Shown one piece after another: positions 3,897-44,745 of a DNA stretch of 64,000 nucleotides. The notes under the pieces are model-generated. The model did no database searches and was not told the origin of the DNA. It was given only the letters and a program-made list of their open reading frames with translations. Numbering within the stretch: position 1 is the first letter of the stretch; each line of letters opens with the position of its first letter. Origin of the DNA: an uncultured Clostridia bacterium. GTDB lineage: Bacteria > Bacillota > Clostridia > TANB77 > CAG-508. Position numbers and translations under genes: made by a program. The stretch covers positions 768-64,767 of the forward strand of contig CAUWFE010000005.1 of the NCBI GenBank assembly GCA_963558185.1, written 5' to 3'.

Positions 3897-4219
3897 ATTA
3901 TGGGTACGTTGAAGATTTCGGCTCTAGTTAACTTTATATATTATTTTATTTCTGTTCCGCCTCATTCAACGACTGAAAACCATTTTTTTTATCCATTTTT
4001 ATTTCTTGCTGTATTAAATCTATAATAACATATATTTTCTTAATTTTATCTAATTTGTATTTGAACCATTACTATTTTACAATATTTAGTGTGCTAATAT
4101 TCTATTTGCATCATAATATTAAGTTTCTATGCGCCATTACCGATAAAATATAATATAGAAGAAATTGCTCCAAATATAACACAAAATTCACAATTTAGAA
4201 AAAAATACATAAGTTTTGA

Positions 4220-4336
4220 AATACTTTTGAAAAGTTTATCTCTTAGATTTGCAGGAAATTTCTAATTATCAAAGAAGCTAATTTAGTTAGAGATTTTCAA
4301 AAGGAAACAAATACTTTTATAAATCCAGAAAAATAA
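4220..4336 (+). pseudogene. Relic 3' fragment of a MobV-type relaxase gene
   Basis: Translates to NTFEKFIS*ICRKFLIIKEANLVRDFQKETNTFINPEK*. This is collinear with the C-terminus of the intact relaxase at 36341..37510 (NTFEKTIKKFIIWVCKKFAISEEDNLIRDFQKETDTFINPEK) but carries an internal stop. Confidence 0.75.
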
Positions 4337-4408
4337 ATTAAACACGAAGAAAGAGAAAAAGAGTAAATTTAGAAATATAAATAAAAGCATCATTAAAGAT
4401 GCTTTTAT

Positions 4409-6538
4409 TTATATTTTTAAGGTAGTATTTGTAGTTATTTCTTTTCCATTTACTATTACTATATGCTTTAGCACGTTATTGTTTAATTGTAAAAATTTAA
4501 AATTGTCAAAGGTATTATTATTAAAAATAATTTTTTGTTGGTAACTATCTTGTAAGTTGTTTAAATATATTAATCTCTGAATATTTGATTGATTTTCTAC
4601 TCTAATAGTATTATTAGTTATACTCACATTAATATTATTTATTTTGGTTAAAGCAAATTGAACAAAATTTTTACTATTTTCTCCCCATAAATTACTATCA
4701 GATAATGTAACTATATTATTCGAAATATCTATATCTTCTGACATTACATATTCTCCATAGTTAAATAACGTGTTTGGAGATTTCCCATTTAAATTAATTG
4801 TATTTCCTGTTATTTTTGTGGAGCCTCCTGTTAACTTATAAACTAAATCACTATTTATAGTAATTTGATTATTAATAATTTGTGGTGCGCCATACTCTAT
4901 TGTATTATCATTATCTGTAAAACTTATAAGATAATTACTAGTTATATCAATTTTATTATTCTCTAATGTTATTTTTCCAAAAATAAAACTACTATTAGTT
5001 GTTTTGGCAATATTAATGCTATTAGAGCTAATTATCACATTTTTTGTTTTTGAATAATTCTGTATAAATGCACTATTATAATTTAAGTTTTCTTGTTCAT
5101 ATTCTAATTTATTATTTTGTATAAATATATTATTTGAACCATCGTCTCCTGCAATATAGGCGAAAATTCCAGCATATTTAGAAGATATTTCGTTATTTAT
5201 AAATTTGATATTAGAAACTTTCCCACCTGTTTGTCCAAATGTAAAATTCATGTAACTAGGCTTCTCAACTTTTCCATCATCTAATTTGAAAGTATTACTG
5301 TCAATAATTATATTATCAATATTTCCATCCCAAATTCCAATTGATTCATCATGGCAACTTTTCTCTATATAATTGTTTTTTATTATAGCATTTTTTGAAA
5401 TATAGCTGTCATTAGTAGTTGCATCACTTAAGAAGATATTTCCACCGACATTACTATTAGTTAAATTGATAAATTCACAATTTTGTATTGTTATATTTTC
5501 CCATTCTGTTCTAAACCATAAATTAGTTAATTTTCTTAATGAATTTTCATTTATTTCATAAATATTAAAAGTACAATCACTTATATTAATATTGTTACAA
5601 TAGTCCCCTACTACCTGACAACTTGATTCATCATCTTTTATCTTAACATTTCCATTTTCAAATTTTAAATTAGTAACCATAATATTTTGAATATGATTTG
5701 TTTCTGTTCCTGCTATATAGACTTGAGCATATGATGAATATTCAATTTGTTCTGATAAAAATAGTGTAGCATCATTTCCAATAATAGCTAAATTGCTTGT
5801 ATTTATTTTTATTATTGTATCATATTTATATCTTTCACTTTCAAACGTAACATTTCCATACCCAGCATTTAGAGCTAATTGTATAGCTCCTGCATCATTA
5901 TGATTTCCATCTCCATAAGCGCCAAATTGATTTACAGTAACTGTATTATTTATTGCATGTAATTCTGCATATAATCCATTATCTAATTGAATACATTTTC
6001 CTTCATCTACTGCTAAACTCGTACTATTTACTATATCATAATAAGCACTTCCACCATACTGTTTATCCCAGTAGCTTTCTGTTTGAACCAACTGTCCATC
6101 TGTTAATTCAGTATCTGTCTTCATACTTGCTACATTAGGATATGTTTTATCTACTTCTAATTTAAATTCTTCTATACTTATTACTTCATTTTCATTTGTT
6201 ACTATTTGCCATTTATCTAATATAAAAGAATAAGTATTGTCTTCATTTTGTGCTACTCCTACTTGTAAGTTCTTTCTTAAGAAGTTTGTAAAATCTGAAC
6301 TTTGATTTGTTGTTTTTTCTATTCCATATTGTGTCAATAATAAAGATACTTTTTCTTTAGCTTCTGCTTTACTATATTCTTCTCCTGCTTTTGTTGCTTG
6401 TCTAAATATTCCATTTTCTCCTATTGTTAAGTTAATTGTTACTCCTACTAATATTAAAAGCACTATTATTGTTATAATAAGTGCTATTAAGGTAATACCT
6501 TTTTTACCATATTTTAGTCCTTCTTTTAATTTCTTCAT
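4409..6538 (-). CDS. Pilin-like N-terminal module fused to a right-handed beta-helix (pectate-lyase/tailspike-like) domain
   Basis: N-terminus MKKLKEGLKYGKKG|ITLIALIITIIVLLIL..GENGIF (prepilin-type). Followed by VNQFGAYGDGNHNDAGAIQLALNAG (Pectate_lyase_3-like) and long N/I-rich beta-helix repeats. The ORF is open to 6613; the start at 6538 was chosen for a short pilin-like leader. Confidence 0.75.
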   Translation of the reverse strand: MKKLKEGLKYGKKGITLIALIITIIVLLILVGVTINLTIGENGIFRQATKAGEEYSKAEAKEKVSLLLTQYGIEKTTNQSSDFTNFLRKNLQVGVAQNEDNTYSFILDKWQIVTNENEVISIEEFKLEVDKTYPNVASMKTDTELTDGQLVQTESYWDKQYGGSAYYDIVNSTSLAVDEGKCIQLDNGLYAELHAINNTVTVNQFGAYGDGNHNDAGAIQLALNAGYGNVTFESERYKYDTIIKINTSNLAIIGNDATLFLSEQIEYSSYAQVYIAGTETNHIQNIMVTNLKFENGNVKIKDDESSCQVVGDYCNNINISDCTFNIYEINENSLRKLTNLWFRTEWENITIQNCEFINLTNSNVGGNIFLSDATTNDSYISKNAIIKNNYIEKSCHDESIGIWDGNIDNIIIDSNTFKLDDGKVEKPSYMNFTFGQTGGKVSNIKFINNEISSKYAGIFAYIAGDDGSNNIFIQNNKLEYEQENLNYNSAFIQNYSKTKNVIISSNSINIAKTTNSSFIFGKITLENNKIDITSNYLISFTDNDNTIEYGAPQIINNQITINSDLVYKLTGGSTKITGNTINLNGKSPNTLFNYGEYVMSEDIDISNNIVTLSDSNLWGENSKNFVQFALTKINNINVSITNNTIRVENQSNIQRLIYLNNLQDSYQQKIIFNNNTFDNFKFLQLNNNVLKHIVIVNGKEITTNTTLKI

Positions 6539-6677
6539 AATTAAATTCATTCCTTTCATTTTTTTCTTTTGATTTTCTGAAATTATAATATCATAGTAGT
6601 AAAATATTTGCAAGTATAAATAGGTGCATATTTATTTTATTTTTTAATATAGAATATCTTGCAAGGAGGTTGCAAAT

Positions 6678-6878
6678 ATGAACAAGTTAAAAATACCAGA
6701 AAATCATAGTGGGATTAGCAAAACTCTTAGACTGCCAGAAAATATAGTAAATGATATACAAAATCTTGCTAATCTTAAAAACTTATCTTTTAATAAAGTT
6801 GTAATTTCTTTATTAGAATTTAGCCTAAATAATTTAGATGAAAAAGATAAAGAAGAATTAGAAAAATTGCAAAAATAA
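6678..6878 (+). CDS. Small ribbon-helix-helix (CopG-like) protein
   Basis: 66 aa. KTLRLPENIVNDIQNLANLKNLSFNKVVISLLEFSL fits a beta-strand/helix/helix pattern. Strong SD aaggagg. Confidence 0.5.
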   Translation: MNKLKIPENHSGISKTLRLPENIVNDIQNLANLKNLSFNKVVISLLEFSLNNLDEKDKEELEKLQK

Positions 6879-6911
6879 TTTTTTATCTAGGTAGACTTGA
6901 AGTCTATCTTT

Positions 6912-7181
6912 TTAAATATCAAGACAAATTATTGTATCATTATCTAAATATAATGTAATACCCTTCTCATTAATTTCTACTTCATATATTTGATTTAAAT
7001 TTATCTTTAAATAATTTTGGCTTTCTTCATCTGTGATGTTCAAAATTTCATATTCAATAAAATATTTTAGTTTATGTATTGAATATTTATTTTTCAAAAA
7101 TCCATCATGAGTTATAACTACATTTTTCCCTATAAACTCATTTAATTTTTCTTCTAAACTATTATTTGTATTTTGTATCAT
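6912..7181 (-). CDS. Hypothetical protein
   Basis: 89-aa ORF with SD gaggt. No motif recognised. Confidence 0.4.
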   Translation of the reverse strand: MIQNTNNSLEEKLNEFIGKNVVITHDGFLKNKYSIHKLKYFIEYEILNITDEESQNYLKINLNQIYEVEINEKGITLYLDNDTIICLDI

Positions 7182-7374
7182 TATTATTACCTCATTTCAC
7201 CAATTTATATTATTCTGTTCATTTATTGAATAATTATACTACTTTTATTAGTGGTTATAACATATTTAATAAATTTATATAATTTGGCAAATTGAAATGA
7301 TTTAATTATAGCGTAACAAAAATTTCAATGCAACGAATCAGTTCGATGAATTGAAAATATTTTATGATTTTTCA

Positions 7375-7393
7375 ATGTACCAAAGTGGTACAT
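7375..7393. promoter_or_regulatory. 19-bp palindrome, candidate operator upstream of XRE gene
   Basis: atgtacca-aag-tggtacat perfect inverted repeat ~60 nt upstream of 7451. Confidence 0.35.
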
Positions 7394-7450
7394 GATTGCA
7401 TTTATATATAATTTTATTGATTTTTAGCGATTTTATGGAGGATTAAAAAA

Positions 7451-30586: not shown

Positions 30587-30674
30587 GCAGATGTGGCGGA
30601 ACTGGTAGACGCACAGGACTTAAAATCCTGCGGTTGAATAAACCGTGCCGGTTCGATTCCGGCCATCTGCACCA
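30587..30674 (+). tRNA. tRNA-Leu (TAA)
   Basis: gcagatgtggcggaactggtagacgc..gaCTTAAAAtc..long variable arm..ggttcgattcc..catctgcacca. Confidence 0.92.
30619..30674 (+). repeat. attL core (3' 56 nt of tRNA-Leu)
   Basis: cttaaaatcctgcggttgaataaaccgtgccggttcgattccggccatctgcacca is identical to 39869..39924. Confidence 0.9.
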
Positions 30675-30678
30675 TTAG

Positions 30679-30720
30679 AACCTCAAGTGTTTCGTAAGAT
30701 TAAGCTTGAGGTTTTAATTT
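30679..30720 (+). terminator. Element-borne terminator replacing the native tRNA terminator
   Basis: aacctcaag/cttgaggtt stem followed by a T-rich tract, directly after attL. Confidence 0.55.
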
Positions 30721-30734
30721 ATAAAAAATTTTGT

Positions 30735-30758
30735 AGTTCTACAAAAAGTTCTACAAAA
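30735..30758 (+). repeat. Tandem AGTTCTACAAAA motif (candidate integrase arm-type site, attL side)
   Basis: agttctacaaaaagttctacaaaa. An almost identical tandem lies at 39695..39718. Confidence 0.5.
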
Positions 30759-30852
30759 TTCACAACATTTTATTTTTATAAAATCTTTATTTAGTGGCTT
30801 AAATAAGGATTTTTTTATTTCTAAATTTTCTAACATTTCTAATAATTTTTAT

Positions 30853-32127
30853 TTATAACTCCATTTCTTCATCTTCTTCGTCATTATCTTGACTAGGTTC
30901 AGTAAAGTTTAAACTATTGCCAATTACTAAAGCAGAATTTTGTTTTGATTCTATATCTACATGAGTATATATATTTGCTGTAGTATTATAACTAGAATGA
31001 CCTAGCCATATTTGAATATCTTTCATACTGATTTTATTAGATAATAATAAGCTAGCACAAGAATGTCTTAAATCGTGAAATCTAATAGGTTTTAAGTTAT
31101 TATCTTTTAGTATTTGATTAAACTTATGTGAAACATAGTCAGGTTTTAGTATAGAACCATCTATATTCACACAAACATAGTCATTATCATTTAAGTATGA
31201 TTTTTTAAATATTTTCTTATTATATTCTTGATTTGCTTTTTCTTCTAAAAGTATTTCTTCGATTTCTGGAATTAAAGGTAAAGTTCTATAACTTGATTGA
31301 TTTTTAGTTTTATCTTCTGCAACAATTTGCAATTTACCATCTACTTTTGTTTGTGAAATAGTATGTCTTATAATAATTGTTTTATTTCCAAAATCAACAG
31401 CATCCCATTTTATACCTAATGCTTCACTTCGCCTAAGTCCATAATATAAGGCTAGAAGAACAGGCAACTTAATAGGTGTATTTTTTATTGCAACTAATAA
31501 TTCATTTAATTGTGCTTTATTATAATAGGTCGCTATGTATTGTTCTTTTTTAGGCTTATCTATTTTGTCTGCTGGATTTGTTAATATTAATTCACATTTT
31601 ACTGCATATTGTAAGGCCTTTCTAATATTAGCATGATAGCGAAGAATTGTATTTCCTTTTAAGCCTAAATTATATAATTCTGTGTAAAAATCTTGAATAT
31701 GATACGGTTTTAAATCTTTTAAGGAAACATCTAATTTCTTAAAATAATTATATACTTTACCTTTTACAATTCTTTCATAACCTGCATAAGTTGTTTTTAC
31801 TACTCTAGGTTTTATAATATCTAACCAATTTATCATAAAATCACAAAACTTTATATTAGCTTTATTATTAATATCTAAGTTAGAAATCGTAGGTTTTTCA
31901 TTTAGAGTTTTTTCATATTCATGTCTTATTTCTTCAACTTTTCTTTCTGCAAGTTTTTTATTATTCTTTACTTTTAATTTCGTGGAAATCCACTTTCGTT
32001 GTATATTATTAAATTCGTCTTTATAATATAAAACAGCATAATAAATATTTTTCTTTTGCTGTAATGTAGCTGTTACTGTTATCACAAAATGACCTCCGTA
32101 TTCCCGTGTAAATGTATTTATTTTCAA
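30853..32127 (-). CDS. int: Tyrosine site-specific recombinase (integrase)
   Basis: 424 aa. R..HDLRHSCASLLL..GHSSYNTTANIYTHV catalytic pattern and an N-terminal SAM-like/arm-binding region. Confidence 0.93.
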   Translation of the reverse strand: MKINTFTREYGGHFVITVTATLQQKKNIYYAVLYYKDEFNNIQRKWISTKLKVKNNKKLAERKVEEIRHEYEKTLNEKPTISNLDINNKANIKFCDFMINWLDIIKPRVVKTTYAGYERIVKGKVYNYFKKLDVSLKDLKPYHIQDFYTELYNLGLKGNTILRYHANIRKALQYAVKCELILTNPADKIDKPKKEQYIATYYNKAQLNELLVAIKNTPIKLPVLLALYYGLRRSEALGIKWDAVDFGNKTIIIRHTISQTKVDGKLQIVAEDKTKNQSSYRTLPLIPEIEEILLEEKANQEYNKKIFKKSYLNDNDYVCVNIDGSILKPDYVSHKFNQILKDNNLKPIRFHDLRHSCASLLLSNKISMKDIQIWLGHSSYNTTANIYTHVDIESKQNSALVIGNSLNFTEPSQDNDEEDEEMEL

Positions 32128-32330
32128 TTTTGACTTATTATATATGAAATTATATTAGCTTTTGGAATTTTATATTGTCTGCCTATTTTCATGGCTTTTA
32201 TTTTGTTTTCCTTAATAAGCCTATAGGCTAGTGTTAAACTAATTCCACCTAACATATTTCGCATTTGTTCAATGTTTATAATATCTGGATAATTAGTAAA
32301 CATGATAGAATATTCTTCTTTGATATCCAT
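32124..32330 (-). CDS. xis: Excisionase-type HTH DNA-binding protein
   Basis: 68 aa. MerR/excisionase-like IEQMRNMLGGISLTLAYRLIKENKIKAMKIGRQYKIPK. 4-nt overlap with int. Confidence 0.8.
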   Translation of the reverse strand: MDIKEEYSIMFTNYPDIINIEQMRNMLGGISLTLAYRLIKENKIKAMKIGRQYKIPKANIISYIISQN

Positions 32331-32351
32331 TTTAACTGTACCTCCTTTTTG

Positions 32352-32759
32352 TTAATATACTGCTTTTGGAACATCTATTGAAACAGTCAATTTTCTATCT
32401 ATTTCAAATCTTTTTCTTTTAGCATTATACTTGTAAGCACTAGAATTAAACTTTCTAAAACTACGATCTGAAATGTCAAAATAATAAGATAGTTCTTCAG
32501 CATCTTGTTTCAATTGAGCTTTAAGAGCTTCATAACTATCTCTATTAGATTTTTGTTTTAACTTCATGTATTCAACGGTTCGTTTTTTATGCTTTTGTTT
32601 GTTTTGTTGTTTCCTTTGATTTTTTTCTACATGATACCTAAAATCTTTCTTTATTACTTTTGATACATAGGCATTACTTACATTTAGTTCAAAAGCAATA
32701 TCAATAGGCTTTAAATGTTTATTGTAAAATAAATCAATGATTTTTTCTTTATTTGACAT
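32352..32759 (-). CDS. HTH protein (sigma-70 region-4-like N-terminus), element regulator
   Basis: 135 aa. KPIDIAFELNVSNAYVSKVIKK HTH, basic C-terminus. SD aggagg. Confidence 0.6.
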   Translation of the reverse strand: MSNKEKIIDLFYNKHLKPIDIAFELNVSNAYVSKVIKKDFRYHVEKNQRKQQNKQKHKKRTVEYMKLKQKSNRDSYEALKAQLKQDAEELSYYFDISDRSFRKFNSSAYKYNAKRKRFEIDRKLTVSIDVPKAVY

Positions 32760-33082
32760 GATAAAAGTACCTCCTTGTGATTGGTTAAATTTTTGCTAAT
32801 AAATTTTAAGCATAGTAATCTAAATGAATATTTATAGCTAAATACTCATTTTTAAATTTATTTGTTTAAAGAATTATATTATCATAATTAGTAATAATCA
32901 ATTTCCTTTTTTCTAAAAACTTAAAAATACTTAAAATCAATTGTAACTAGATTGCAGCAGGGAATAAAAAATAAATCAATGAATGTTTTTTGAACAATTT
33001 TTGAAAAAATTAGAGGTAAAAAAAATGATAAATAGATACAAAAAAAGTAGCCATATAGCTACTAAATAAATTTATAGAAATA

Positions 33083-33319
33083 TTAATCTTCCTCTACATC
33101 TTTAAATAATTTATCTGTAAAAAATTCATTTAATTCAATACCTAATCCTTCACATAGATGTAATAAAGTAACAAGTTTAGGACTTTGACTTTTTCCATTT
33201 ATAAAACTACTTAATGTAGAATATGATATTCCAGATTCTAAAGATAACCTATGTAAAGTTATATTTCTTTCATCTGTTAAATTTATAATTCTTCTTCTAA
33301 CAGCTTCTGAAAGTTGCAT
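33083..33319 (-). CDS. XRE-family HTH repressor
   Basis: Start at ATG 33319 (SD agagggg); the ORF track extends to 33355. HTH LHRLSLESGISYSTLSSFING. Confidence 0.82.
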   Translation of the reverse strand: MQLSEAVRRRIINLTDERNITLHRLSLESGISYSTLSSFINGKSQSPKLVTLLHLCEGLGIELNEFFTDKLFKDVEED

Positions 33320-33360
33320 AATACCCCTCTTTTCTTTATATAAAAAGTATAGCAAAATAG

Positions 33361-33442
33361 ACGAAATAACGCTGACGAAAAATCGTCAAAATACTATTGC
33401 AAAATCTCTTTATTAGAGATATAATATAAACGAAATATCGTT
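33361..33442. promoter_or_regulatory. Operator-like ACGA-N4-TCGT palindromes in divergent intergenic region
   Basis: gacgaaaaatcgtc (33374..33387) and aacgaaatatcgtt (33429..33442) are perfect 14-bp palindromes. acgaaataacg (33361..33371) is a half-site variant. Confidence 0.55.
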
Positions 33443-33459
33443 AAACAAGGAGGTGTAAT

Positions 33460-33756
33460 GTGTTAAAAATAGAAGATATTAATAAATATATAGAAGATTC
33501 AATATTAGATACTATTTTTAGAAATCGACAAGAAGAATTGTATAAAGAAAACAAAAAAGAGGATTTAGAAATTATTAAAATAAAAGAAGAATATACAGTA
33601 GATTATGAAAGACTTTTAATAGCAATAAAAAATCTTCCACCTCATTTTCAAAATACGAGAGAAGGAATTATAGAGGCATTAGAAAATTATTTAATAAGAG
33701 AAAATTTAATTGTTGCTCACGATAATGAAAAGTTTTATAAAGCACGGTTTCTGTGA
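33460..33756 (+). CDS. Hypothetical protein
   Basis: 98 aa. GTG start 6 nt after SD aggagg. No motif recognised. Confidence 0.45.
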   Translation: MLKIEDINKYIEDSILDTIFRNRQEELYKENKKEDLEIIKIKEEYTVDYERLLIAIKNLPPHFQNTREGIIEALENYLIRENLIVAHDNEKFYKARFL

Positions 33757-33818
33757 TGGTATTAGAACTATATTAGAAAGTATAGAAAACACCAGTAGCA
33801 AATAATATTTATTTACTA

Positions 33819-34067
33819 CTAGCAGTTTAACTTTTTATTAAATACATCAGCTGATACATTAAAAATTTTAGCAAATGCAAACAATTCAAAATCTTGAACT
33901 AACCTATTATCATTTTCTATTTTTGAAATTTCTTTTGATGTTAGTTCTATACCTAATAACTGTAATTTTTCTGCTAAATCTTGTTGAGATAAGTTAGCTT
34001 TTAATCTCAATTCTTTTAGAACAGAGCCAGATATATTTCTAAAGTTATTGTATTTGTTAATTTTCAT
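33819..34067 (-). CDS. XRE-family HTH regulator (divergent from the peptide operon)
   Basis: 82 aa. LKELRLKANLSQQDLAEKLQLLGIELTSKEISKIENDNR classic Cro/C1 HTH. Confidence 0.85.
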   Translation of the reverse strand: MKINKYNNFRNISGSVLKELRLKANLSQQDLAEKLQLLGIELTSKEISKIENDNRLVQDFELFAFAKIFNVSADVFNKKLNC

Positions 34068-34160
34068 ATTCTCACCTTATTCGCTTTATTATAGATATTA
34101 TTTTACTATTATTTTTTTATATACATATCTCTAATAAAGCGAAAAATTAACAAATATATA

Positions 34161-34189
34161 TTGACAAATTATTCCAAATATGATATTAT
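34161..34189 (+). promoter_or_regulatory. Near-consensus sigma-A promoter of the peptide/rSAM operon
   Basis: TTGACA-17 nt-TATTAT, ~90 nt upstream of the 71-aa ORF. Confidence 0.65.
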
Positions 34190-34278
34190 GGTAACTGTAA
34201 TACATTAATTGTATTATTTAGAGTAGTAACTAATACTCTAAGCAACCAGTTGAAATTTTATGGAAAGGAGAATGCACT

Positions 34279-34494
34279 ATGACTAGAATGGCACGGACAA
34301 ATTACTGGAATCCTAGTGTAAACTACATTGGGAAAAACTCTGCTCAGAACTTTATGAAGTCTGCAAAGGCTAAATTAGTCGGGGCTGGAGTAAAAGTAGT
34401 AGCTGCAGATTGCTCTTGTAACTGTTCAAGCGGTTGCTCTGCATGCAGTAGTTCCTGTGGATCTTGCACATCTTGCAGTACATCTTGTAGTTAA
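34279..34494 (+). CDS. Cys/Ser-rich putative RiPP precursor peptide
   Basis: 71 aa. SD ggaaaggag. A 44-aa leader-like part is followed by CSCNCSSGCSACSSSCGSCTSCSTSCS (9 Cys). Sits directly upstream of a radical SAM/SPASM gene. Confidence 0.75.
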   Translation: MTRMARTNYWNPSVNYIGKNSAQNFMKSAKAKLVGAGVKVVAADCSCNCSSGCSACSSSCGSCTSCSTSCS

Positions 34495-34598
34495 TACAAG
34501 TGGACGAATAATGTGTATCGTCGACAGCACACATTAGTTTCAACAAAGCAGAGGCATCTCTTTTAGAGGTGTCTCTTGCACTAAAAGGAGGATTTATA

Positions 34599-35633
34599 AT
34601 GGCAGAAAGAACAAAATTTAGTATGCAATGGCATATTACTGACAGATGTGACCAACGGTGTAAACATTGCTATATCTATGAGGGAAAGGACAAAAAATGT
34701 AGTCTTGAACTTGATTTAGACACCTTGAAAGATATCTTGGAAGATTTTCTTCAAAGTTGTGAAAAGTTAGAAAGAGATCCATTTCTTGTAATTACAGGAG
34801 GCGACCCATTACTCTATGAAAAGATTTGGGATTTTCTTCAAATTCTTAAAAAGAAGAAAGTTCATTTTGGACTTTTAGGAAATCCATTCCACTTGAATTA
34901 TGAGGTCGTAAAGAGACTGGAAGATTTAGGATGTATAAACTTCCAAATGTCTTTGGATGGATTAAGAGAAACACATGATTACATTCGTAAGCCTGGTTCC
35001 TTTGATGCTACCTTAGATGCTCTTAAGTATTTTGAAGGAAGCAAAATTAAAACAGCTATCATGACAACTGTTTCCAAGACAAATATTGAGGAAATTCCAG
35101 AATTGGTAGATATTGTGGTAAAACATAAGGTAAGCAATTTTGGATTTGCAAGATATTGTCCTAATCCAGAAGATTTTGATTTGATGGTTTCTCCTGAAGA
35201 ATACAGAGAATTTTTAGACAAAATGTGGGAAAAATATATGCAAAATCAGGAATGTGATACAAGATTTGCATTAAAAGACCATCTTTGGAAACTGTATCTG
35301 TACGAGAAAGGATTATTCAATCCTGATGAGATTGACAATCCCAATAATTTAATTCTTGATGGTTGTCACTGTGGAATTACTCATATTACAACTTTAGCAG
35401 ATGGAACAGTGTATGCTTGTAGAAGAAGCGAAACTCCTGTTGGCAAAGTTCCAGATGAGTCCTTCTACGATATTTTTACAGGAGAAGAAATGGAAAAATA
35501 TCGTCAGTATGACAAGTTTGAACATTGTTCTAAATGTGAAATCAAGAACTTTTGCAGAGGATGTCCTTCAATAGCAAAATGTTTAACAGGTGACTTTTAT
35601 TCAAAAGATCCTCAGTGCTGGAAAAAGTTTTGA
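34599..35633 (+). CDS. Radical SAM/SPASM-domain peptide-modifying enzyme (putative maturase)
   Basis: 344 aa from ATG 34599 (SD aaaaggagg; the ORF track starts at GTG 34569). CDQRCKHCY = CX3CX2C near the N-terminus. C-terminal CHCG..GTVYAC..CSKCEIKNFCRGC..C..C auxiliary-cluster pattern. Confidence 0.85.
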   Translation: MAERTKFSMQWHITDRCDQRCKHCYIYEGKDKKCSLELDLDTLKDILEDFLQSCEKLERDPFLVITGGDPLLYEKIWDFLQILKKKKVHFGLLGNPFHLNYEVVKRLEDLGCINFQMSLDGLRETHDYIRKPGSFDATLDALKYFEGSKIKTAIMTTVSKTNIEEIPELVDIVVKHKVSNFGFARYCPNPEDFDLMVSPEEYREFLDKMWEKYMQNQECDTRFALKDHLWKLYLYEKGLFNPDEIDNPNNLILDGCHCGITHITTLADGTVYACRRSETPVGKVPDESFYDIFTGEEMEKYRQYDKFEHCSKCEIKNFCRGCPSIAKCLTGDFYSKDPQCWKKF

Positions 35634-35641
35634 AAGCACAA

Positions 35642-35685
35642 AGGAGAGTGAAAAATAAAATTTTCACTCTCCTGTTACTTTTTAT
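35642..35685 (+). terminator. Strong terminator closing the two-gene cassette
   Basis: aggagagtgaaaa/ttttcactctcct 13-bp stem followed by a T-rich tract, 9 nt after the stop. Confidence 0.75.
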
Positions 35686-35735
35686 ATTATTATATGTTAT
35701 AATGTTTGTTAATATATGGAAAGGAAATGATTTTG

Positions 35736-36318
35736 ATGGGCGATATAAAAAAATACTATGAAAATACAGAAAATGCTTTACCAAATCCAAATGTAAGAAA
35801 TTTTATAGAAATGAATATAAAACCAACAAATGCTATCGATTTAGGATGTGGAGCAGGTAGAGATACAATATATTTAATAAAAAATGGATGGAATGTTCTA
35901 GCAATAGATAGAGAAGATACCAAAGATATTATATCTAGCAAATTAGATAAAAATGAATTAGAGAAATTTAGATTTGATAGTCAAAGTTTTGAAAATATTG
36001 AGTTAGAAAAAACTGATTTAATAGTTGCTAATTTCTGTATTCCTTTTTGTAACAAGCAATTTTTTAGTGAATTTTGGAATAAAGTAACTGATAGTATTCT
36101 AAAAGATCGGATATTTTGTGGGAAACTTTTTTGGACTAAATGATTCATGGGCAAAAATAAAAAAAGAAATGACATTTTTATCTAAAGAACAAACATTAGA
36201 TTTATTTAAAAATTCTTTTGAATTAATACACTTTAATGAAATTGAAAAAGATGGAAAGACCGGACTAGGAAAAATGAAACATTGGCATATTTATAATGTT
36301 ATTGCAAAGAAAAAATAG
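35736..36318 (+). pseudogene. Class I SAM-dependent methyltransferase, frameshifted
   Basis: Motif I AIDLGCGAGRDTIYL. The reading frame breaks near the A4 run at 36101..36104. Continuation in the other frame (KIGYFVGNFFGLNDSWAK...) restores a typical ~195-aa enzyme. Confidence 0.7.
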
Positions 36319-36340
36319 TATAAAGAAACAGAAAGAAGTC

Positions 36341-37510
36341 TTATAAAGACAATTCGTCTGTTTCTTTTTCTAATTCATATTCAATTTGCTTTTCAGGGTT
36401 AATAAAAGTATCAGTTTCTTTTTGAAAATCTCTAATAAGGTTATCTTCTTCACTAATAGCAAATTTTTTACAAACCCAAATTATAAACTTTTTGATAGTT
36501 TTCTCAAATGTATTTATAATTTTATTCAAATAGATATTTTCACTTAATAACTCATCATATTTTTTATTAAAATTTCTTTTTAGTTCAATTTCTTTATTAT
36601 GAAAATCTTTTTCTAATCTAACACATTTATTTTCAAGATTTAATTTTTCTTGTAAAATTACTTGTTTTTCATTTTCAAATTTTTCAGCTTTATCTATAAC
36701 ATTTATTTGTTTTTCTAATGCTTGATGTAATTTTTTATTGTCAGAGCATAACATATTAATAATCTTATCTTTTGGCTCTATTATTTCCTTTTGTATTTTT
36801 TCATCTCTTTTTACAGTAAGTTTTCCAAAATCTTTAATGCTAGGGACATTAGGTAATTCAATTTTAATATCTTCTAAAGTTTTTTTGTTTTTTTCATAAT
36901 TTGTAATTTCTTTATAGTCTTTTACTGATAAATGTTCTCTTGATGATTTTCCTCTTTCTAAATCAAAGCCCTTTTCAGTTATATAAGAATAAAAGGCATT
37001 TTGTAATTGAATATAACTATCTTTTTCTTTCCAAAACTCACTACAAGCAATTTTATCAATAGCATTTCCTTTTTTATCTGTAGTATGAACAACAGGAATA
37101 AAAGCTAAATGTAAATGAGGAGTTTCTTCATCTAGGTGTACTTTAGCAGATAAAATGTATTGTTCACCTAAGTTTTTATATTCACAGACAAATTTGTATG
37201 CCGTTTCAAAATATCTTTTTGTTTCGTTTTCTCCAATAGATTCAAAAAACTCTTTATCAGATGTAATTATATATTCACATACTATATTACTAACTGTTTT
37301 GACTTGTCCTTTTAAATTATATTTTTTTCTTATTTTATCAAATTCTTTTTCATAACTATAGGTAGGCTCTTTAATAGAATAATTAAGATATGATTTTGAT
37401 GTATCTATATTTTTATTAGAATAGCTTTTATTTCTTCTTTCATTATGACGATATATTCCTTTTAAATTCTCTCTTTTATATTTTTCATTTCTTATTATTG
37501 CATAACTCAT
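36341..37510 (-). CDS. mob: MobV-family (Mob_Pre) relaxase
   Basis: 389 aa. N-terminal MSYAIIRNEKYK...YRHNERR and HxDExxPHxH motif (HLDEETPHLHLAFIPV). Coiled-coil C-terminus. Confidence 0.9.
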   Translation of the reverse strand: MSYAIIRNEKYKRENLKGIYRHNERRNKSYSNKNIDTSKSYLNYSIKEPTYSYEKEFDKIRKKYNLKGQVKTVSNIVCEYIITSDKEFFESIGENETKRYFETAYKFVCEYKNLGEQYILSAKVHLDEETPHLHLAFIPVVHTTDKKGNAIDKIACSEFWKEKDSYIQLQNAFYSYITEKGFDLERGKSSREHLSVKDYKEITNYEKNKKTLEDIKIELPNVPSIKDFGKLTVKRDEKIQKEIIEPKDKIINMLCSDNKKLHQALEKQINVIDKAEKFENEKQVILQEKLNLENKCVRLEKDFHNKEIELKRNFNKKYDELLSENIYLNKIINTFEKTIKKFIIWVCKKFAISEEDNLIRDFQKETDTFINPEKQIEYELEKETDELSL

Positions 37511-37584
37511 ATTTTAAGACCTCCTTGTTTAACTTTATAAGAAAACACAAAATGTTATTTTTGACTTTTGGTTATTTGGCGATT

Positions 37585-37608
37585 AGTGTTGTAACACACT
37601 ACAACACT
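37585..37608 (-). promoter_or_regulatory. Candidate oriT (nick region) of the IME
   Basis: Perfect hairpin agtgttgta-acacac-tacaacact. On the minus strand the loop reads GTAGTGTGTTAC, matching the pMV158/MobM nick-region core TAGTGTG/TTA. Confidence 0.65.
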
Positions 37609-37814
37609 TTTTTAGCTGTTAGCAAAAAGTGTCAGTGTGGCAGGGAAAATTTTTTTCCCCACACCCCTTGCATACAAAATACACCAAGTGAATTTTGTAT
37701 GTTTTCAATAAAATTGCTCAATGCAATTTATTGAAAAAAAGAATCAAGAAAAACACTTTTTAAGTTTTTTCTTGACTCTATGAAACCTAGCTCGGTTTCA
37801 AACTTCCACGCGTA

Positions 37815-37913
37815 CTGACAAAAAATTTATATAGTCATATAAACTTTTTGTCAGTTTAGGCAAGGAAAATTGACATCCAATATCGGCGATACGCCAACAT
37901 TGGACATCAATTT
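37815..37913 (-). other. Two long imperfect hairpins (possible single-strand origin/structured T-strand region)
   Basis: 18-bp stem at 37815..37854 and 22-bp stem at 37867..37913. All five mismatches are A.C on the plus strand but G.T wobbles on the minus strand. Confidence 0.4.
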
Positions 37914-38443
37914 CGCACAAAAATAACTATATTACAATATTTTAAATTAGATATTTGTTAAAATATAAAAAATTTATATATATTTTTTATATTAAATTTT
38001 AATGACTAGAAACCAGAGGGAGGGAGCATAAGAGAAATAGGTGCAATAATCCCATAGTGAGAAAAAAGGATTATTACACCTAATATTTTAGAAACCGTCG
38101 GTCAGTCGCTTTCGGTCATAGGTAGTCTAGTATGTAGTAAAACTACTGTAATTGCTAACATATTTCTATGTTTTGTTCATACTTGCCCAAACTTTTTACA
38201 ATTACAAATCCATATCAAGTTTTGCCTCCCAATACTCTTTTATTATTGTGAGTCTGTGTTGTAAAATCTCACTCACGCATTTTGTGTAAATAGACCGTTT
38301 ACACGAATACGAATGAATTTTATAGCATTGGCTCATTACACCTAACACTTTTTAAGAGGTGTTGCATTTCTCTGTATAATAAAAAAATCCTACTAACAAT
38401 TTGAATTGTATAGTAGAATCTTTTAGAATATTATTCATTATAT

Positions 38444-39583
38444 TTAATTAGTTTTTTTGACTTCAGTATATCTATTATAAAGCTTATTTATTAATCCATC
38501 TATTTCTTCTGTCTTTTCAATTTCATTATGGTAATATTGTTTTATAAGTTTTAATTCGCTAGCAGTTACAAAAATATCAAGGAAAGTTAGCCCTTGACAA
38601 TAACTTTCATCTGGATTTCCTGTAAAATGAGGATCAATACTTCTTTCGTATAAAACAGTAACTATGTACTCTATTAACTCATCTTTAGTAAAGTTTCCTT
38701 GTTTAAATTTTTCTAATAAAGGAGATGTTTTAAGAAATATTTTTTTCATTAGTTTTAAATTCACATGAATATCATTTCCTAAATCTAAATATGCATCATC
38801 TGGAATTATTCTATCATTTGTAATAGTTCCAGAATAATCTGCTTTTTTTATTTTCTCAGCATACCCCATTAGATTGACTGGTGGAAGAACTATATTATTT
38901 ATAGCTGTCATCATTAACAAATAAAATAAATATAAATTATTTTCTAATTTATCTTCGTGAGTAACTAAGATAGTGTTATTACTAGGAATTATTTCAATTT
39001 CTTTAAATCCATGTCTATTAATGCCAAAAATTAAACCTTTATCTAATACACATACAATACTTAATCTATTTCTTAAATCTATATTGTTATTAAATTCATC
39101 GATTTTTTTTACAATATTATTTAAACTTGTATCACTAGAATAAGCAAATATCATACAAATTGGTGGTGTAATAGAAGAAGATATTAAAGGCATTGAAAAC
39201 GGTTTTGTTTTTTCTAATTTTTTTACACTTTCTATATTTTTAATGCTTTTTTCTAATTCAGCAATTGTTAGTGTCGATTTTACTTCGATAGTGGCATAGA
39301 CACTTTCAATAGGAATAACTTGAATACTTTCAGTTTCCATTAATTTGGGACTATTAAAATTGTCATAAATTATAAAGTCTTGTTGATTACTTTGAGTTTC
39401 ATTGGAATCCACGATAATTCCATTTCCAATTACATATTTAGTTGGAAATAATTTAGAAATATATTCTTTTAATTTTTCTTCACGAACAGTTCCTTTTAAT
39501 CCATTATGATTGATTTTACTACTTAATTTTTCATAATCACTTTGTAAATTTCTTGCCATTTCTTGCAAATTATATATAAACAT
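38444..39583 (-). CDS. PD-(D/E)xK nuclease-like protein (DUF6602-like N-terminus) with unknown C-terminal domain
   Basis: 379 aa. HNGLKGTVREEKLKEYISKLFPTKYVIGNGIIVDS..SNQQDFIIYD...ATIEVKS gives a D...E-x-K arrangement. SD ggagg. Confidence 0.6.
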   Translation of the reverse strand: MFIYNLQEMARNLQSDYEKLSSKINHNGLKGTVREEKLKEYISKLFPTKYVIGNGIIVDSNETQSNQQDFIIYDNFNSPKLMETESIQVIPIESVYATIEVKSTLTIAELEKSIKNIESVKKLEKTKPFSMPLISSSITPPICMIFAYSSDTSLNNIVKKIDEFNNNIDLRNRLSIVCVLDKGLIFGINRHGFKEIEIIPSNNTILVTHEDKLENNLYLFYLLMMTAINNIVLPPVNLMGYAEKIKKADYSGTITNDRIIPDDAYLDLGNDIHVNLKLMKKIFLKTSPLLEKFKQGNFTKDELIEYIVTVLYERSIDPHFTGNPDESYCQGLTFLDIFVTASELKLIKQYYHNEIEKTEEIDGLINKLYNRYTEVKKTN

Positions 39584-39694
39584 AATTAACCTCCAATTAT
39601 ATAATTGTGCGAGAATCTCTTATACAATAGTATTATAGCATAAATTCCTGAAAATTGTCATTTTTTAGTGGAAATAATAAAAGAATCCTTTTTT

Positions 39695-39718
39695 AGTTCT
39701 ACAAAAGTTCTACAAAAA
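39695..39718 (+). repeat. Tandem AGTTCTACAAAA motif (candidate arm-type site, attR side)
   Basis: agttctacaaaagttctacaaaaa, same orientation as 30735..30758. Confidence 0.5.
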
Positions 39719-39868
39719 TTTAAAAATTTTTGATAGTTGCCAAAAATAAAAAAATATTGTATAATCTAAATGAAATTGAAAGAAAGTTAGAAAAAAAAGG
39801 CTTATTTGATGTTTATAAATGGTGCTAAATAATGCTAAAAAATTTTAAGTAATAATTATTTGATTTTT

Positions 39869-39924
39869 CTTAAAATCCTGCGGTTGAATAAACCGTGCCG
39901 GTTCGATTCCGGCCATCTGCACCA
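39869..39924 (+). repeat. attR core (duplicate of tRNA-Leu 3' 56 nt)
   Basis: Identical to 30619..30674. The upstream tRNA part is absent here. Confidence 0.9.
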
Positions 39925-43875: not shown

Positions 43876-44745
43876 GTGAAAAATAATATTGCTGTTATAG
43901 GTGGAGACTTAAGAATGGTAAAATTAGTAGAAATGCTAGCAAATGATGATTATAAAGTAAATACATATGCATTAGAAAAGGCAGAAAGCATCCATCATAT
44001 AGCAAATGTTAAAATTTGTAAAACTTTAGAAGAGGCGATAGACAATATAGAAGTAATTGTAGGACCGATACCATTATCTGCAAATAATATTCAAATTAAT
44101 ACGCCGTTTAGTGAAAAAACAGTAACTTTAGAGGAACTAAAAAAATCTTTAGTGGGAAAAAAATTTATAGCAGGAAATATGAAGGCAGAGCTAGTAGAAG
44201 AAATGCAAGAAAAAAATATAGAAGTAACAGATTTACTTAAAAGAGAGGAATTAGTTGTATTAAATACAATTTCTACAGCAGAAGGTGCAATACAAATTGC
44301 AATGGAAGAGACAATAAAAACTATATATGGTAGTAAAATATTAGTTTTAGGATATGGAAAAGTAGGCAAAATTTTAGCTAATATGCTAAAAGGAATTGGG
44401 GCAGAAGTATATTGTGAAGCTAGAAAAAATGTTGATTTAGCATGGATTAAAGCATATGGATATAATCCAGTTCATTTAAGTGAATTAGAAGAATACTTAC
44501 CAAAAATGGATATTATTATTAATACAATACCATCTTTAATATTAGATAAAGAAAGACTAAAAATAGTAAATAAAGAAAGTCTAATAATAGACTTAGCATC
44601 TAATCCGGGAGGAGTAGATAAATTAGAAGCAAAAAAAGCTGGAATAAAAACTATATGGGCATTATCTTTACCAGGAAAAGTAGCACCATTAACATCAGCA
44701 GAATTTATAAAAGATACAATATATAATGTATTAAAAGAAATATAA
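43876..44745 (+). CDS. dpaA: Dipicolinate synthase subunit A
   Basis: 289 aa. Collinear with SpoVFA (IAVIGGDLR.., NTISTAEGAI, VLGYGKVG, IINTIPS, IDLAS.PGG). GTG start with SD aggggag. Confidence 0.85.
   Translation: MKNNIAVIGGDLRMVKLVEMLANDDYKVNTYALEKAESIHHIANVKICKTLEEAIDNIEVIVGPIPLSANNIQINTPFSEKTVTLEELKKSLVGKKFIAGNMKAELVEEMQEKNIEVTDLLKREELVVLNTISTAEGAIQIAMEETIKTIYGSKILVLGYGKVGKILANMLKGIGAEVYCEARKNVDLAWIKAYGYNPVHLSELEEYLPKMDIIINTIPSLILDKERLKIVNKESLIIDLASNPGGVDKLEAKKAGIKTIWALSLPGKVAPLTSAEFIKDTIYNVLKEI

Follow-up and report, generated by a model that had tools for sequence, protein, structure and literature searches.

What is made from a small peptide crowded with cysteines when a radical S-adenosylmethionine (SAM) enzyme is encoded directly behind it? 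The question is raised by a locus of an uncultured Clostridia bacterium (assembly GCA_963558185.1, contig CAUWFE010000005.1), of which a stretch of 64,000 nucleotides, here called the window, was analysed. A preliminary description of this stretch saw a minimal two-gene cassette for a peptide resembling those that ribosomes make and that are then modified post-translationally (RiPPs). Are the two genes really a pair, and does the cassette end with the second of them? The locus is a real, self-contained, selected and horizontally mobile cassette for a putatively modified Cys-rich peptide. It belongs to a family that has a name and apparently no characterisation, the ACGX system, of which it is a variant with a new core, an added methyltransferase gene and a conserved break in the frame of that gene. 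We consider it likely, from sequence comparison, that the cassette is a promoter-equipped three-gene module for a putative modified Cys-rich peptide, carried as cargo by a mobilisable island integrated at a tRNA-Leu gene (coordinates in Table 1).

An ACGX-system enzyme and its peptide partner

To which family does the enzyme belong? It had been left unplaced, but NCBIfam TIGR04340 ('radical SAM/SPASM domain protein, ACGX system') matches it with 470.2 bits against a cutoff of 400 (E 3.8e-141), residues 6-343 aligning to model positions 2-340 of 341. Pfam finds a Radical_SAM domain (PF04055) and a SPASM domain (PF13186), and the cutoffs of the anaerobic sulfatase-maturating enzyme (anSME), sactipeptide and ranthipeptide models are missed. 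SbtM (TIGR04082, cutoff 350) comes second with 187 bits, aligned over model positions 198-515 only; all sactipeptide, ranthipeptide, anSME and heme-pathway models reach at most 126 bits. The alignments agree with the preliminary description on the 344 residues, on the CX3CX2C motif starting at residue 17 (C17, C21 and C24) and on the C-terminal SPASM pattern. The three SAM-cluster cysteines and seven SPASM cysteines (C256, C274, C310, C313, C319, C322 and C340) are invariant in 18-23 aligned relatives. An AlphaFold2 model (pLDDT 88.7) finds its best folds in SkfB, SuiB, anSME and PqqE (TM-score 0.65-0.76), and the match list also holds the CteB-type entry 5wgg. The catalytic and SPASM parts use up the whole modelled chain, leaving no residue for a RiPP recognition element (RRE). 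That there is no room for an RRE had been noticed before; that this is peculiar to the locus does not hold, as it is the norm across the ACGX family of ~340-residue enzymes. By its sequence the enzyme is assigned to the ACGX system as a full-length radical SAM/SPASM member with one SAM cluster motif and no RRE.

The peptide gene begins behind a good Shine-Dalgarno sequence (AAAGGAG), as first described, and its 71 codons fall into a leader and a core. The core, DCSCNCSSGCSACSSSCGSCTSCSTSCS, contains no ACG, and its cysteines have only small neighbours (S, G, A, N, T, D). The peptide ends in CSCNCSSGCSACSSSCGSCTSCSTSCS, these last 27 residues holding nine Cys at CX1-3 spacing and using only C, S, T, G, A and N, exactly as the earlier reading had it. 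Is such repetition a property of the DNA or of the protein? Serine in the core is written with five codons (tct, tca, agc, agt and tcc), and the core's codon differences over 11 loci comprise 491 synonymous and 44 nonsynonymous ones; because of this ratio the pattern can be said to be maintained at the protein level, as had been proposed. Slippage of the DNA was rejected as its origin, since Tandem Repeats Finder reports a single 2 x 12-nt repeat in the core (34468..34491) and synonymous changes dominate. The nonsynonymous and synonymous rates (dN and dS) are 0.012 and 0.50 for the core, and 0.058 and 0.61 for the leader. Purifying selection acts very strongly on the core, which is nearly invariant and held more tightly than the leader. 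This is unusual among antimicrobial RiPPs and argues for a conserved physiological product.

If the core is so peculiar, what ties the peptide to the ACGX system? The answer lies in the leader, which carries the motif N-Y-W…S-A-Q-x-F-M. Aligned over 20 peptides, ACGX-repeat ones included, it becomes N-[YFAG]-W…[ST]-[AV]-Q-x-[FYV]-[ML] with an invariant Gln (Gln23). By this alignment the leader is homologous to ACGX-repeat leaders, and only the core is different: it lacks the tandem A-C-G-[SAT] repeats and PEEKP-type spacers of the family and fails TIGR04341, the model of the ACGX-repeat peptide. The earlier difficulty in placing the precursor is thereby resolved, the core alone being new. For the rest the locus resembles an ACGX system closely, with the enzyme above cutoff over its full length, a Cys-rich peptide gene with the common leader motif directly upstream, and no RRE, protease or exporter. 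What sets it apart, besides the core, is the addition of a TehB-like methyltransferase. A protein-database search returns 19 clusters of the window peptide, none of them named and none from NCBI annotation.

The pairing itself is not a matter of chance. In two scans, made with one genome per species and 80 loci kept per scan, relatives of the enzyme were found in at least 595 species genomes, spread over gut Clostridia, Bacteroidales, Methanobrevibacter and other archaea (DPANN), Patescibacteria and others. A small open reading frame (ORF) stands 5' of the enzyme gene in 17/17 loci that include the upstream region and whose enzyme is 82-93% identical to that of the window, and in almost all of ~100 loci a Cys-rich short ORF ends 15-210 nt 5' of the enzyme. 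The 71-residue ORF is the conserved partner of the enzyme, which upholds the proposed RiPP-like pair of precursor and maturase: homologues keep the small ORF, and the enzyme scores neither as an anSME nor as a housekeeping radical SAM protein. At ~50% enzyme identity the partners are ACGX-repeat peptides of the classic kind (…PSACGSACGAGDK, with spacers of the PEEKP type) that TIGR04341 recognises. At 58% identity and above, and in a few others, the cores differ, being of the window type or of the types SCGCSGDCSCSGPCSGGCGDG, CSSCSCGVGGCGSGGGCDGY, ECGDGPCGIGGCGESGCDNY and SCNCGGGCNGSCSTSCE. Methanobrevibacter loci (L041, L045, L048, L054 and L079) have a core type of their own with TACGSDINTACGSD repeats, and members from Patescibacteria (L039, L083) and Micrarchaeota (L062), ~50% identical like these, have their own core types as well. 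Occurrence in archaea and in ultra-small episymbiont lineages implies wide inter-domain transfer. The ACGX system is a large enzyme-peptide family for which a literature search found no biochemical work. A Synergistales locus (L020) encodes two tandem enzyme paralogues (4001..5032 and 6383..7402, 45% and 37% identity), and an ORF scan showed no obvious Cys-rich ORF upstream of them.

How far the cassette extends

Where are the ends of the unit? Compared by blastn with loci in unrelated contexts, DNA homology starts at 34142-34161 (the -35 box) and ends at 36311-36335 (the stop of the methyltransferase gene), and the flanks further out are unrelated. From promoter to this stop the unit measures ~2.16 kb (34161..36318) and is found in at least six different flanking contexts, in surroundings with, among others, another integrase, queA and an MT-A70-like gene; the horizontal spread suggested earlier is thereby borne out. 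The order peptide-enzyme-methyltransferase is also seen in three more settings, where the enzyme is 60-62% identical: a transposon-like element with serine recombinase, TnpV/TnpW and Mob_Pre genes, a chromosomal site between penicillin-binding-protein and TruB genes, and another between phosphoglucomutase-family and PP-loop ATPase (PF01171) genes. Because homology ends at the methyltransferase stop in several contexts and the gene order recurs, the cassette has three genes and not the two of the preliminary description, the conserved unit reaching 36318. The same boundaries dispose of the divergent XRE-family gene that had been taken for a repressor guarding the system. It lies beyond the homology boundary and is absent from the other contexts, and was accordingly rejected as a component.

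The peptide gene (42% G+C) and the radical SAM gene (34%) are richer in G+C than their surroundings (~24%), as had been observed. In the assembly collection 52 blocks hold the exact enzyme sequence, whose cluster at 92% identity has 1054 members, the module being common in gut metagenomes. A search of plasmid and phage sequences found the cassette on no sequenced plasmid or phage. Compact (~2.2 kb) and with its own promoter, this sub-branch offers a convenient entry to finding the product of the ACGX family.

How would the cassette be expressed? The near-consensus promoter had been recognised correctly and carries a TG extension in addition. Two tandem hairpins follow in the 5' untranslated region (UTR), the second with seven pairs preserved through changes on both sides. 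Rfam gives no credible match in 33700..36500, these hairpins included, on which ground a riboswitch or other known RNA was rejected. The spacer between peptide and enzyme genes has the 104 nt (34495..34598) reported at first. It had been given two mutually exclusive hairpins, of which only the one with AATGTGT/ACACATT arms is conserved, and a stronger conserved hairpin, placed right before the Shine-Dalgarno sequence of the enzyme, had been overlooked. The intercistronic structure has a minimum free energy of -27.8 kcal/mol (z -3.15), and distant loci have a GC-rich hairpin of unrelated sequence at the same place. The strong promoter would give a single transcript on which these hairpins favour precursor excess over enzyme, for which such an arrangement is the usual one elsewhere. 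The 13-pair terminator-like hairpin behind the enzyme gene is also present (35642..35673), and the methyltransferase gene of the unit lies beyond it.

This third gene (35736..36318) lies just 3' of the terminator. Its frame-joined protein scores 47.5 bits versus 20.4 with Pfam TehB (PF03848) and 40-52 bits with the NCBIfam TehB equivalogs, whose cutoffs are 218-303, so membership is at fold level only. Of the 16 distinct window-type loci (L001-L018), 14 have the methyltransferase behind the enzyme; in a profile search of the fetched loci it was 3' of the enzyme in 23/33 with a non-ACGX core and in 0/51 with ACGX repeats. It is also found, with co-diverged sequences, in the distant lineages of L037, L038, L039, L062, L063, L083, L084, L113, L122 and L125. 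It marks a sub-branch without ACGX repeats.

But how can a protein be made from a gene whose reading frame is broken? Frame 0 runs through the CGG at 36108..36110 and meets a stop at 36141..36143, 11 codons past it, while the remainder of the protein is encoded in the +1 frame. Intact stand-alone homologues (192-195 residues, 63-77% identical) read …SILKD GYFVGNFFG…, and their AAA GAT GGA TAT corresponds to AAA GAT C GGA TAT in the window, with one C more. The expected trans-frame product would have ~193 residues and the junction …SILKD-GYFVGNFFGLNDSWAK. Joined in this way the protein spans Pfam TehB positions 20-170 across the junction, versus 20-116 for part A alone. The break codon is CGG in 12/12 window-type loci, and among the 12,288 host codons in the window CGG is 1 of 382 Arg codons. 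Part B has a dN/dS of 0.05-0.17 at dS 0.66-2.6. In a second lineage (L113, L122 and L125) the break comes four codons later, at GTN CGG AAA with the +1 reading (C)GGA AAY; here too there is an extra C before GGA, kept down to 53% protein identity, and part-B dN/dS is 0.11. Both halves of the methyltransferase are under purifying selection in both lineages despite the different break sites. Two other explanations were set aside: an independent start of part B, rejected as a general account since between the +1-frame stop and GYFVGNFFG some loci lack any start codon, and AAA-to-AAG tRNA-Lys slippage as the shift site, dropped since many loci have no AAA there. On balance, we take a +1 ribosomal frameshift, programmed or tolerated at the least, to be the best reading of the sequences. 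Full-length methyltransferase would need a +1 shift at C|GGA, in a very rare codon, and would therefore be scarce or made conditionally.

Does CGG play a wider part in the cassette? The peptide gene has one at codon 6 (34294..34296), followed by A, where a +1 shift would abort translation after 14 residues. The enzyme gene has another at codon 20 (34656..34658), for Arg20 in CDQ-R-C, which is kept in most low-GC relatives. CGG encodes Arg20 in 30/94 loci, versus 14% among other Arg codons pooled, an excess that is suggestive in the low-GC clade and not compelling. These two codons may reflect rare-codon gating of the whole cassette or mere inheritance. The methyltransferase gene of L038 (4073..4706) has a frame break further upstream, at about model position 51, with the GYFVG site intact; this may reflect faulty assembly, a pseudogene or a third site of recoding.

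To our knowledge, +1 frameshifting at a hungry CGG_A has so far been documented only in glass-sponge mitochondria. There GGA is preceded by one C too many, and the shift takes place at the resulting CGG_(A) (Atkins et al. 2016, PMC5009743). The likeness extends to the position of the extra C directly 5' of GGA, the extreme rarity of CGG and the conservation of the downstream frame. The differences are that the genes here are bacterial and on mobile elements, that there are two independent sites, and that they are known from sequence; the +1 sites of prfB and of the Ty3 type offer further comparison. Provided that the frame break is real, it would offer a clean case, from bacteria, of +1 frameshifting at a rare sense codon. 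Its twofold origin within a single gene family would have a bearing on the origin of recoding sites.

Possible chemistry and competing explanations

What would the enzyme do to the core? It may bind the conserved leader directly, without an RRE, after which 5'-deoxyadenosyl radicals would take hydrogen from core cysteines. The leading candidate for the product, which we put forward tentatively and by analogy with SbtM, is a 5-thio-oxazole. According to the summary of Lewis et al. 2021 in PMC9204691, SbtM turns Gly-Cys/Sec into a thio(seleno)oxazole by two Cys beta-H abstractions and ring formation with the preceding carbonyl. The small residues around the core cysteines are compatible with a reaction of this type. 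SbtM (SbtMa) is the closest characterised family by the scores of the hidden Markov models, the radical SAM and SPASM regions being aligned in full; the substrates share a motif of small residue and Cys, and three Fe-S clusters are expected. The two differ in the selenocysteine of the SbtM peptide, of which there is none here, and in the methyltransferase, none having been described for SbtM. In the ACGX variant the methyltransferase would next methylate the product. A TehB-type enzyme could plausibly accept an aromatic thiol, and sulfur is our guess for the site, since chalcogen nucleophiles are what such enzymes methylate. The island ORFs include no YcaO, no lanthionine synthetase, no peptidase or protease and no exporter or transporter, in agreement with the preliminary description. 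The lack of a protease and an exporter, together with the highly conserved core, makes a role inside the cell or in its physiology, to do with metals or redox, likelier for the product than that of a diversifying bacteriocin.

Could this amount to a new RiPP class? Such a class would combine an RRE-less enzyme, the conversion of many of the nine closely spaced cysteines to 5-thio-oxazoles, and their S-methylation by a TehB-like enzyme gated by a CGG_A frameshift; we regard the full combination as rather improbable. MNIO metallophores (bufferins and relatives) are ribosomal peptides in which several Cys become thio-oxazoles (PMC11626156, PMC12668002). A functional analogy with the cassette may exist, although it is pure conjecture; the MNIO enzyme family is unrelated and oxygen-dependent. 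The cassette as an anaerobic counterpart of that route is an idea that we hold to be just as improbable as the new class to which it belongs.

The strongest competitor, possible if doubtful, is that the enzyme forms intramolecular thioether cross-links (sactionine or ranthionine) from core Cys sulfur to carbon atoms of residues close by (Ser, Thr, Gly or Ala), so that the peptide would be compact and knotted, as SCIFF/ranthipeptides are. Such links are formed by most characterised SPASM maturases whose peptide substrates are rich in Cys, and SkfB and CteB-type 5wgg are among the structural matches. The locus also follows the two-gene logic of clostridial SCIFF/ranthipeptide systems (CteB, PapB), with a Cys-rich peptide of ~45-70 residues, a SPASM maturase, no dedicated protease or exporter and similar Cys spacing in the core. 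SCIFF/ranthipeptide maturases carry an N-terminal RRE. The PapB, StsB and SkfB models do match the enzyme, but with 76, 57 and 57 bits these scores are far under the 187 bits of SbtM and under their own cutoffs of 340, 625 and 300. The peptide has no match to SCIFF peptide models at E <= 10, and the CXXX-repeat target peptide model TIGR04117 gives it 11.4 bits against a cutoff of 50 (E 0.26). Thioethers would moreover leave no free nucleophile for the linked methyltransferase.

Is the methyltransferase part of the system at all? It could be an unrelated passenger or a decaying pseudogene behind a functional two-gene pair, which we judge unlikely. This explanation draws on observations that weigh against the three-gene module in general. 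The terminator parts the methyltransferase from the enzyme gene, its G+C is host-like (25% versus 34% in the enzyme gene), its frame is broken, ACGX-repeat loci do without it, and close intact homologues stand alone away from radical SAM genes. The methyltransferase may have been added later and play a role of its own. The link between core type and methyltransferase (Fisher p 4e-13) comes from only ~7 independent lineages. CGG must be decodable to some extent, because the peptide and enzyme genes each hold one, and the trans-frame methyltransferase is a prediction from sequence. Other points on the same side concern the peptide and the chemistry. The window peptide has no match to TIGR04341 (cutoff 28 bits) even at E <= 10, although the L019 peptide, as positive control, scores 40.6 bits. 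The extra N-terminal region of SbtM, ~195 residues, is absent here, and the score stays at 187 against 350. A literature search found no experimental work on any ACGX-system member, so that the chemistry is argued only from remote homology, and searches on SPASM, cysteine-rich peptides and RiPPs returned nothing relevant. What speaks against a passenger is that in at least six contexts homology breaks off precisely at the methyltransferase stop, that the gene follows the enzyme, with co-diverged sequence, in ten distant loci, and that both halves have dN/dS of 0.05-0.40 at dS 0.6-2.6 in two lineages with different break sites.

Less favoured still, and quite unlikely, is an anSME-like oxidation of core Cys or Ser to formylglycine-type aldehydes, or a peptide that is merely a metal- or Fe-S-binding partner of the enzyme and not its substrate. 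An anSME is a good fold match (TM-score ~0.7), has radical SAM and SPASM domains and no RRE, and is similar in length (~340-370 residues); the SbtM chemistry is itself called anSME-like thiol oxidation (PMC9204691), and nine Cys in 27 residues would bind metals unmodified. The enzyme, however, reaches 70.8 bits with the anSME model TIGR03942 against a cutoff of 349, the substrate of an anSME is a sulfatase protein and not a leader peptide, and there is no sulfatase gene nearby, nor any on the island. As for a mere partner, the strict co-occurrence of peptide and enzyme in hundreds of genomes and the leader motif are the signature of a substrate. Finally, an anti-phage module of a viperin-like radical SAM enzyme and a methyltransferase would suit a mobile island with an adjoining NucC/PD-DExK-like nuclease, and prokaryotic viperin (pVip) models give 56-63 bits, but the idea is highly implausible, as this match is to the generic radical SAM core (residues 9-215), lies ~400 bits below TIGR04340, and viperins have neither a SPASM domain nor a partner peptide.

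The mobile island and its host

Table 1. Features of the cassette and of the island that carries it, with positions in the window
Feature	Position	Strand	Basis
Sigma-70-type promoter, TTGACA-17-(TG)-TATTAT	34161..34189	+	11/12 matches; TTGACA and TATTAT invariant in 11 aligned loci
Two tandem 5' UTR hairpins	34197..34217, 34218..34241	+	RNAalifold consensus
Precursor peptide gene, 71 residues; leader codons 1-43, Cys/Ser-rich core codons 44-71 (34408..34491)	34279..34494	+	ORF, conserved 5' of enzyme
Intercistronic hairpins, the second of 11 bp	34510..34535, 34550..34576	+	Consensus structure in 12 loci
Radical SAM/SPASM maturase, 344 residues, TIGR04340 (predicted)	34599..35633	+	NCBIfam, Pfam, AlphaFold2
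Intrinsic terminator-like hairpin, 13 pairs, T-rich tail	35642..35683	+	Terminator scan
Methyltransferase part A, frame 0, 124 codons	35736..36107	+	Pfam TehB; conserved 3' of enzyme; dN/dS 0.16-0.40
In-frame CGG, proposed +1 site; +1 codon GGA	36108..36110	+	C at 36108 extra versus intact homologues
Methyltransferase part B, +1 frame, 69 codons and stop	36109..36318	+	Open in +1 frame in all loci
Conserved mobile unit, outer limits of DNA homology	34142..36335	+	blastn against loci in unrelated contexts
Integrative mobilisable island, ~9.25 kb	30619..39924		Exact 56-nt direct repeats, 30619..30674 and 39869..39924
Tyrosine integrase (Phage_integrase)	30853..32127	-	Domain match
HTH_17 excisionase-like gene	32124..32330	-	Domain match
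Divergent XRE-family helix-turn-helix (HTH) gene, outside the cassette	33819..34067	-	PF01381; only in loci with the same island
Mob_Pre relaxase	36341..37510	-	Domain match
DUF6602 protein, PD-DExK/NucC-like	38444..39583	-	PADLOC models

How does the cassette travel? The left repeat of the surrounding island is the 3' end of a tRNA-Leu-UAA gene (30587..30674). An integrase by the tRNA gene, a relaxase and flanking direct repeats mark the island, which has no conjugation machinery, as an integrative mobilisable element; it has two XRE genes in all. The same island occurs in L005, L012 and L108, and it sits at the same chromosomal site, after rpoD, in both places examined (22 further similar ones exist). 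The DUF6602 protein scores 135.6 bits with the PADLOC PD_DExK model, 110.6 with that of a NucC-type endonuclease effector and 99.5 with that of the NucC nuclease, and by these matches its gene may be defence or addiction cargo. In L109 (13017..21035) a version of the island has another right-hand part (RepA_N, HTH, LemA and DUF3137) than the window has to the right of 37510, which points to modular exchange beyond the relaxase gene. In the host DNA of the window, a gene on the plus strand (43876..44745) encodes a DpaA_N domain (dipicolinate synthase subunit A-like), which together with the ~24% G+C suggests a very low-GC, spore-forming gut bacterium of the Clostridia type.

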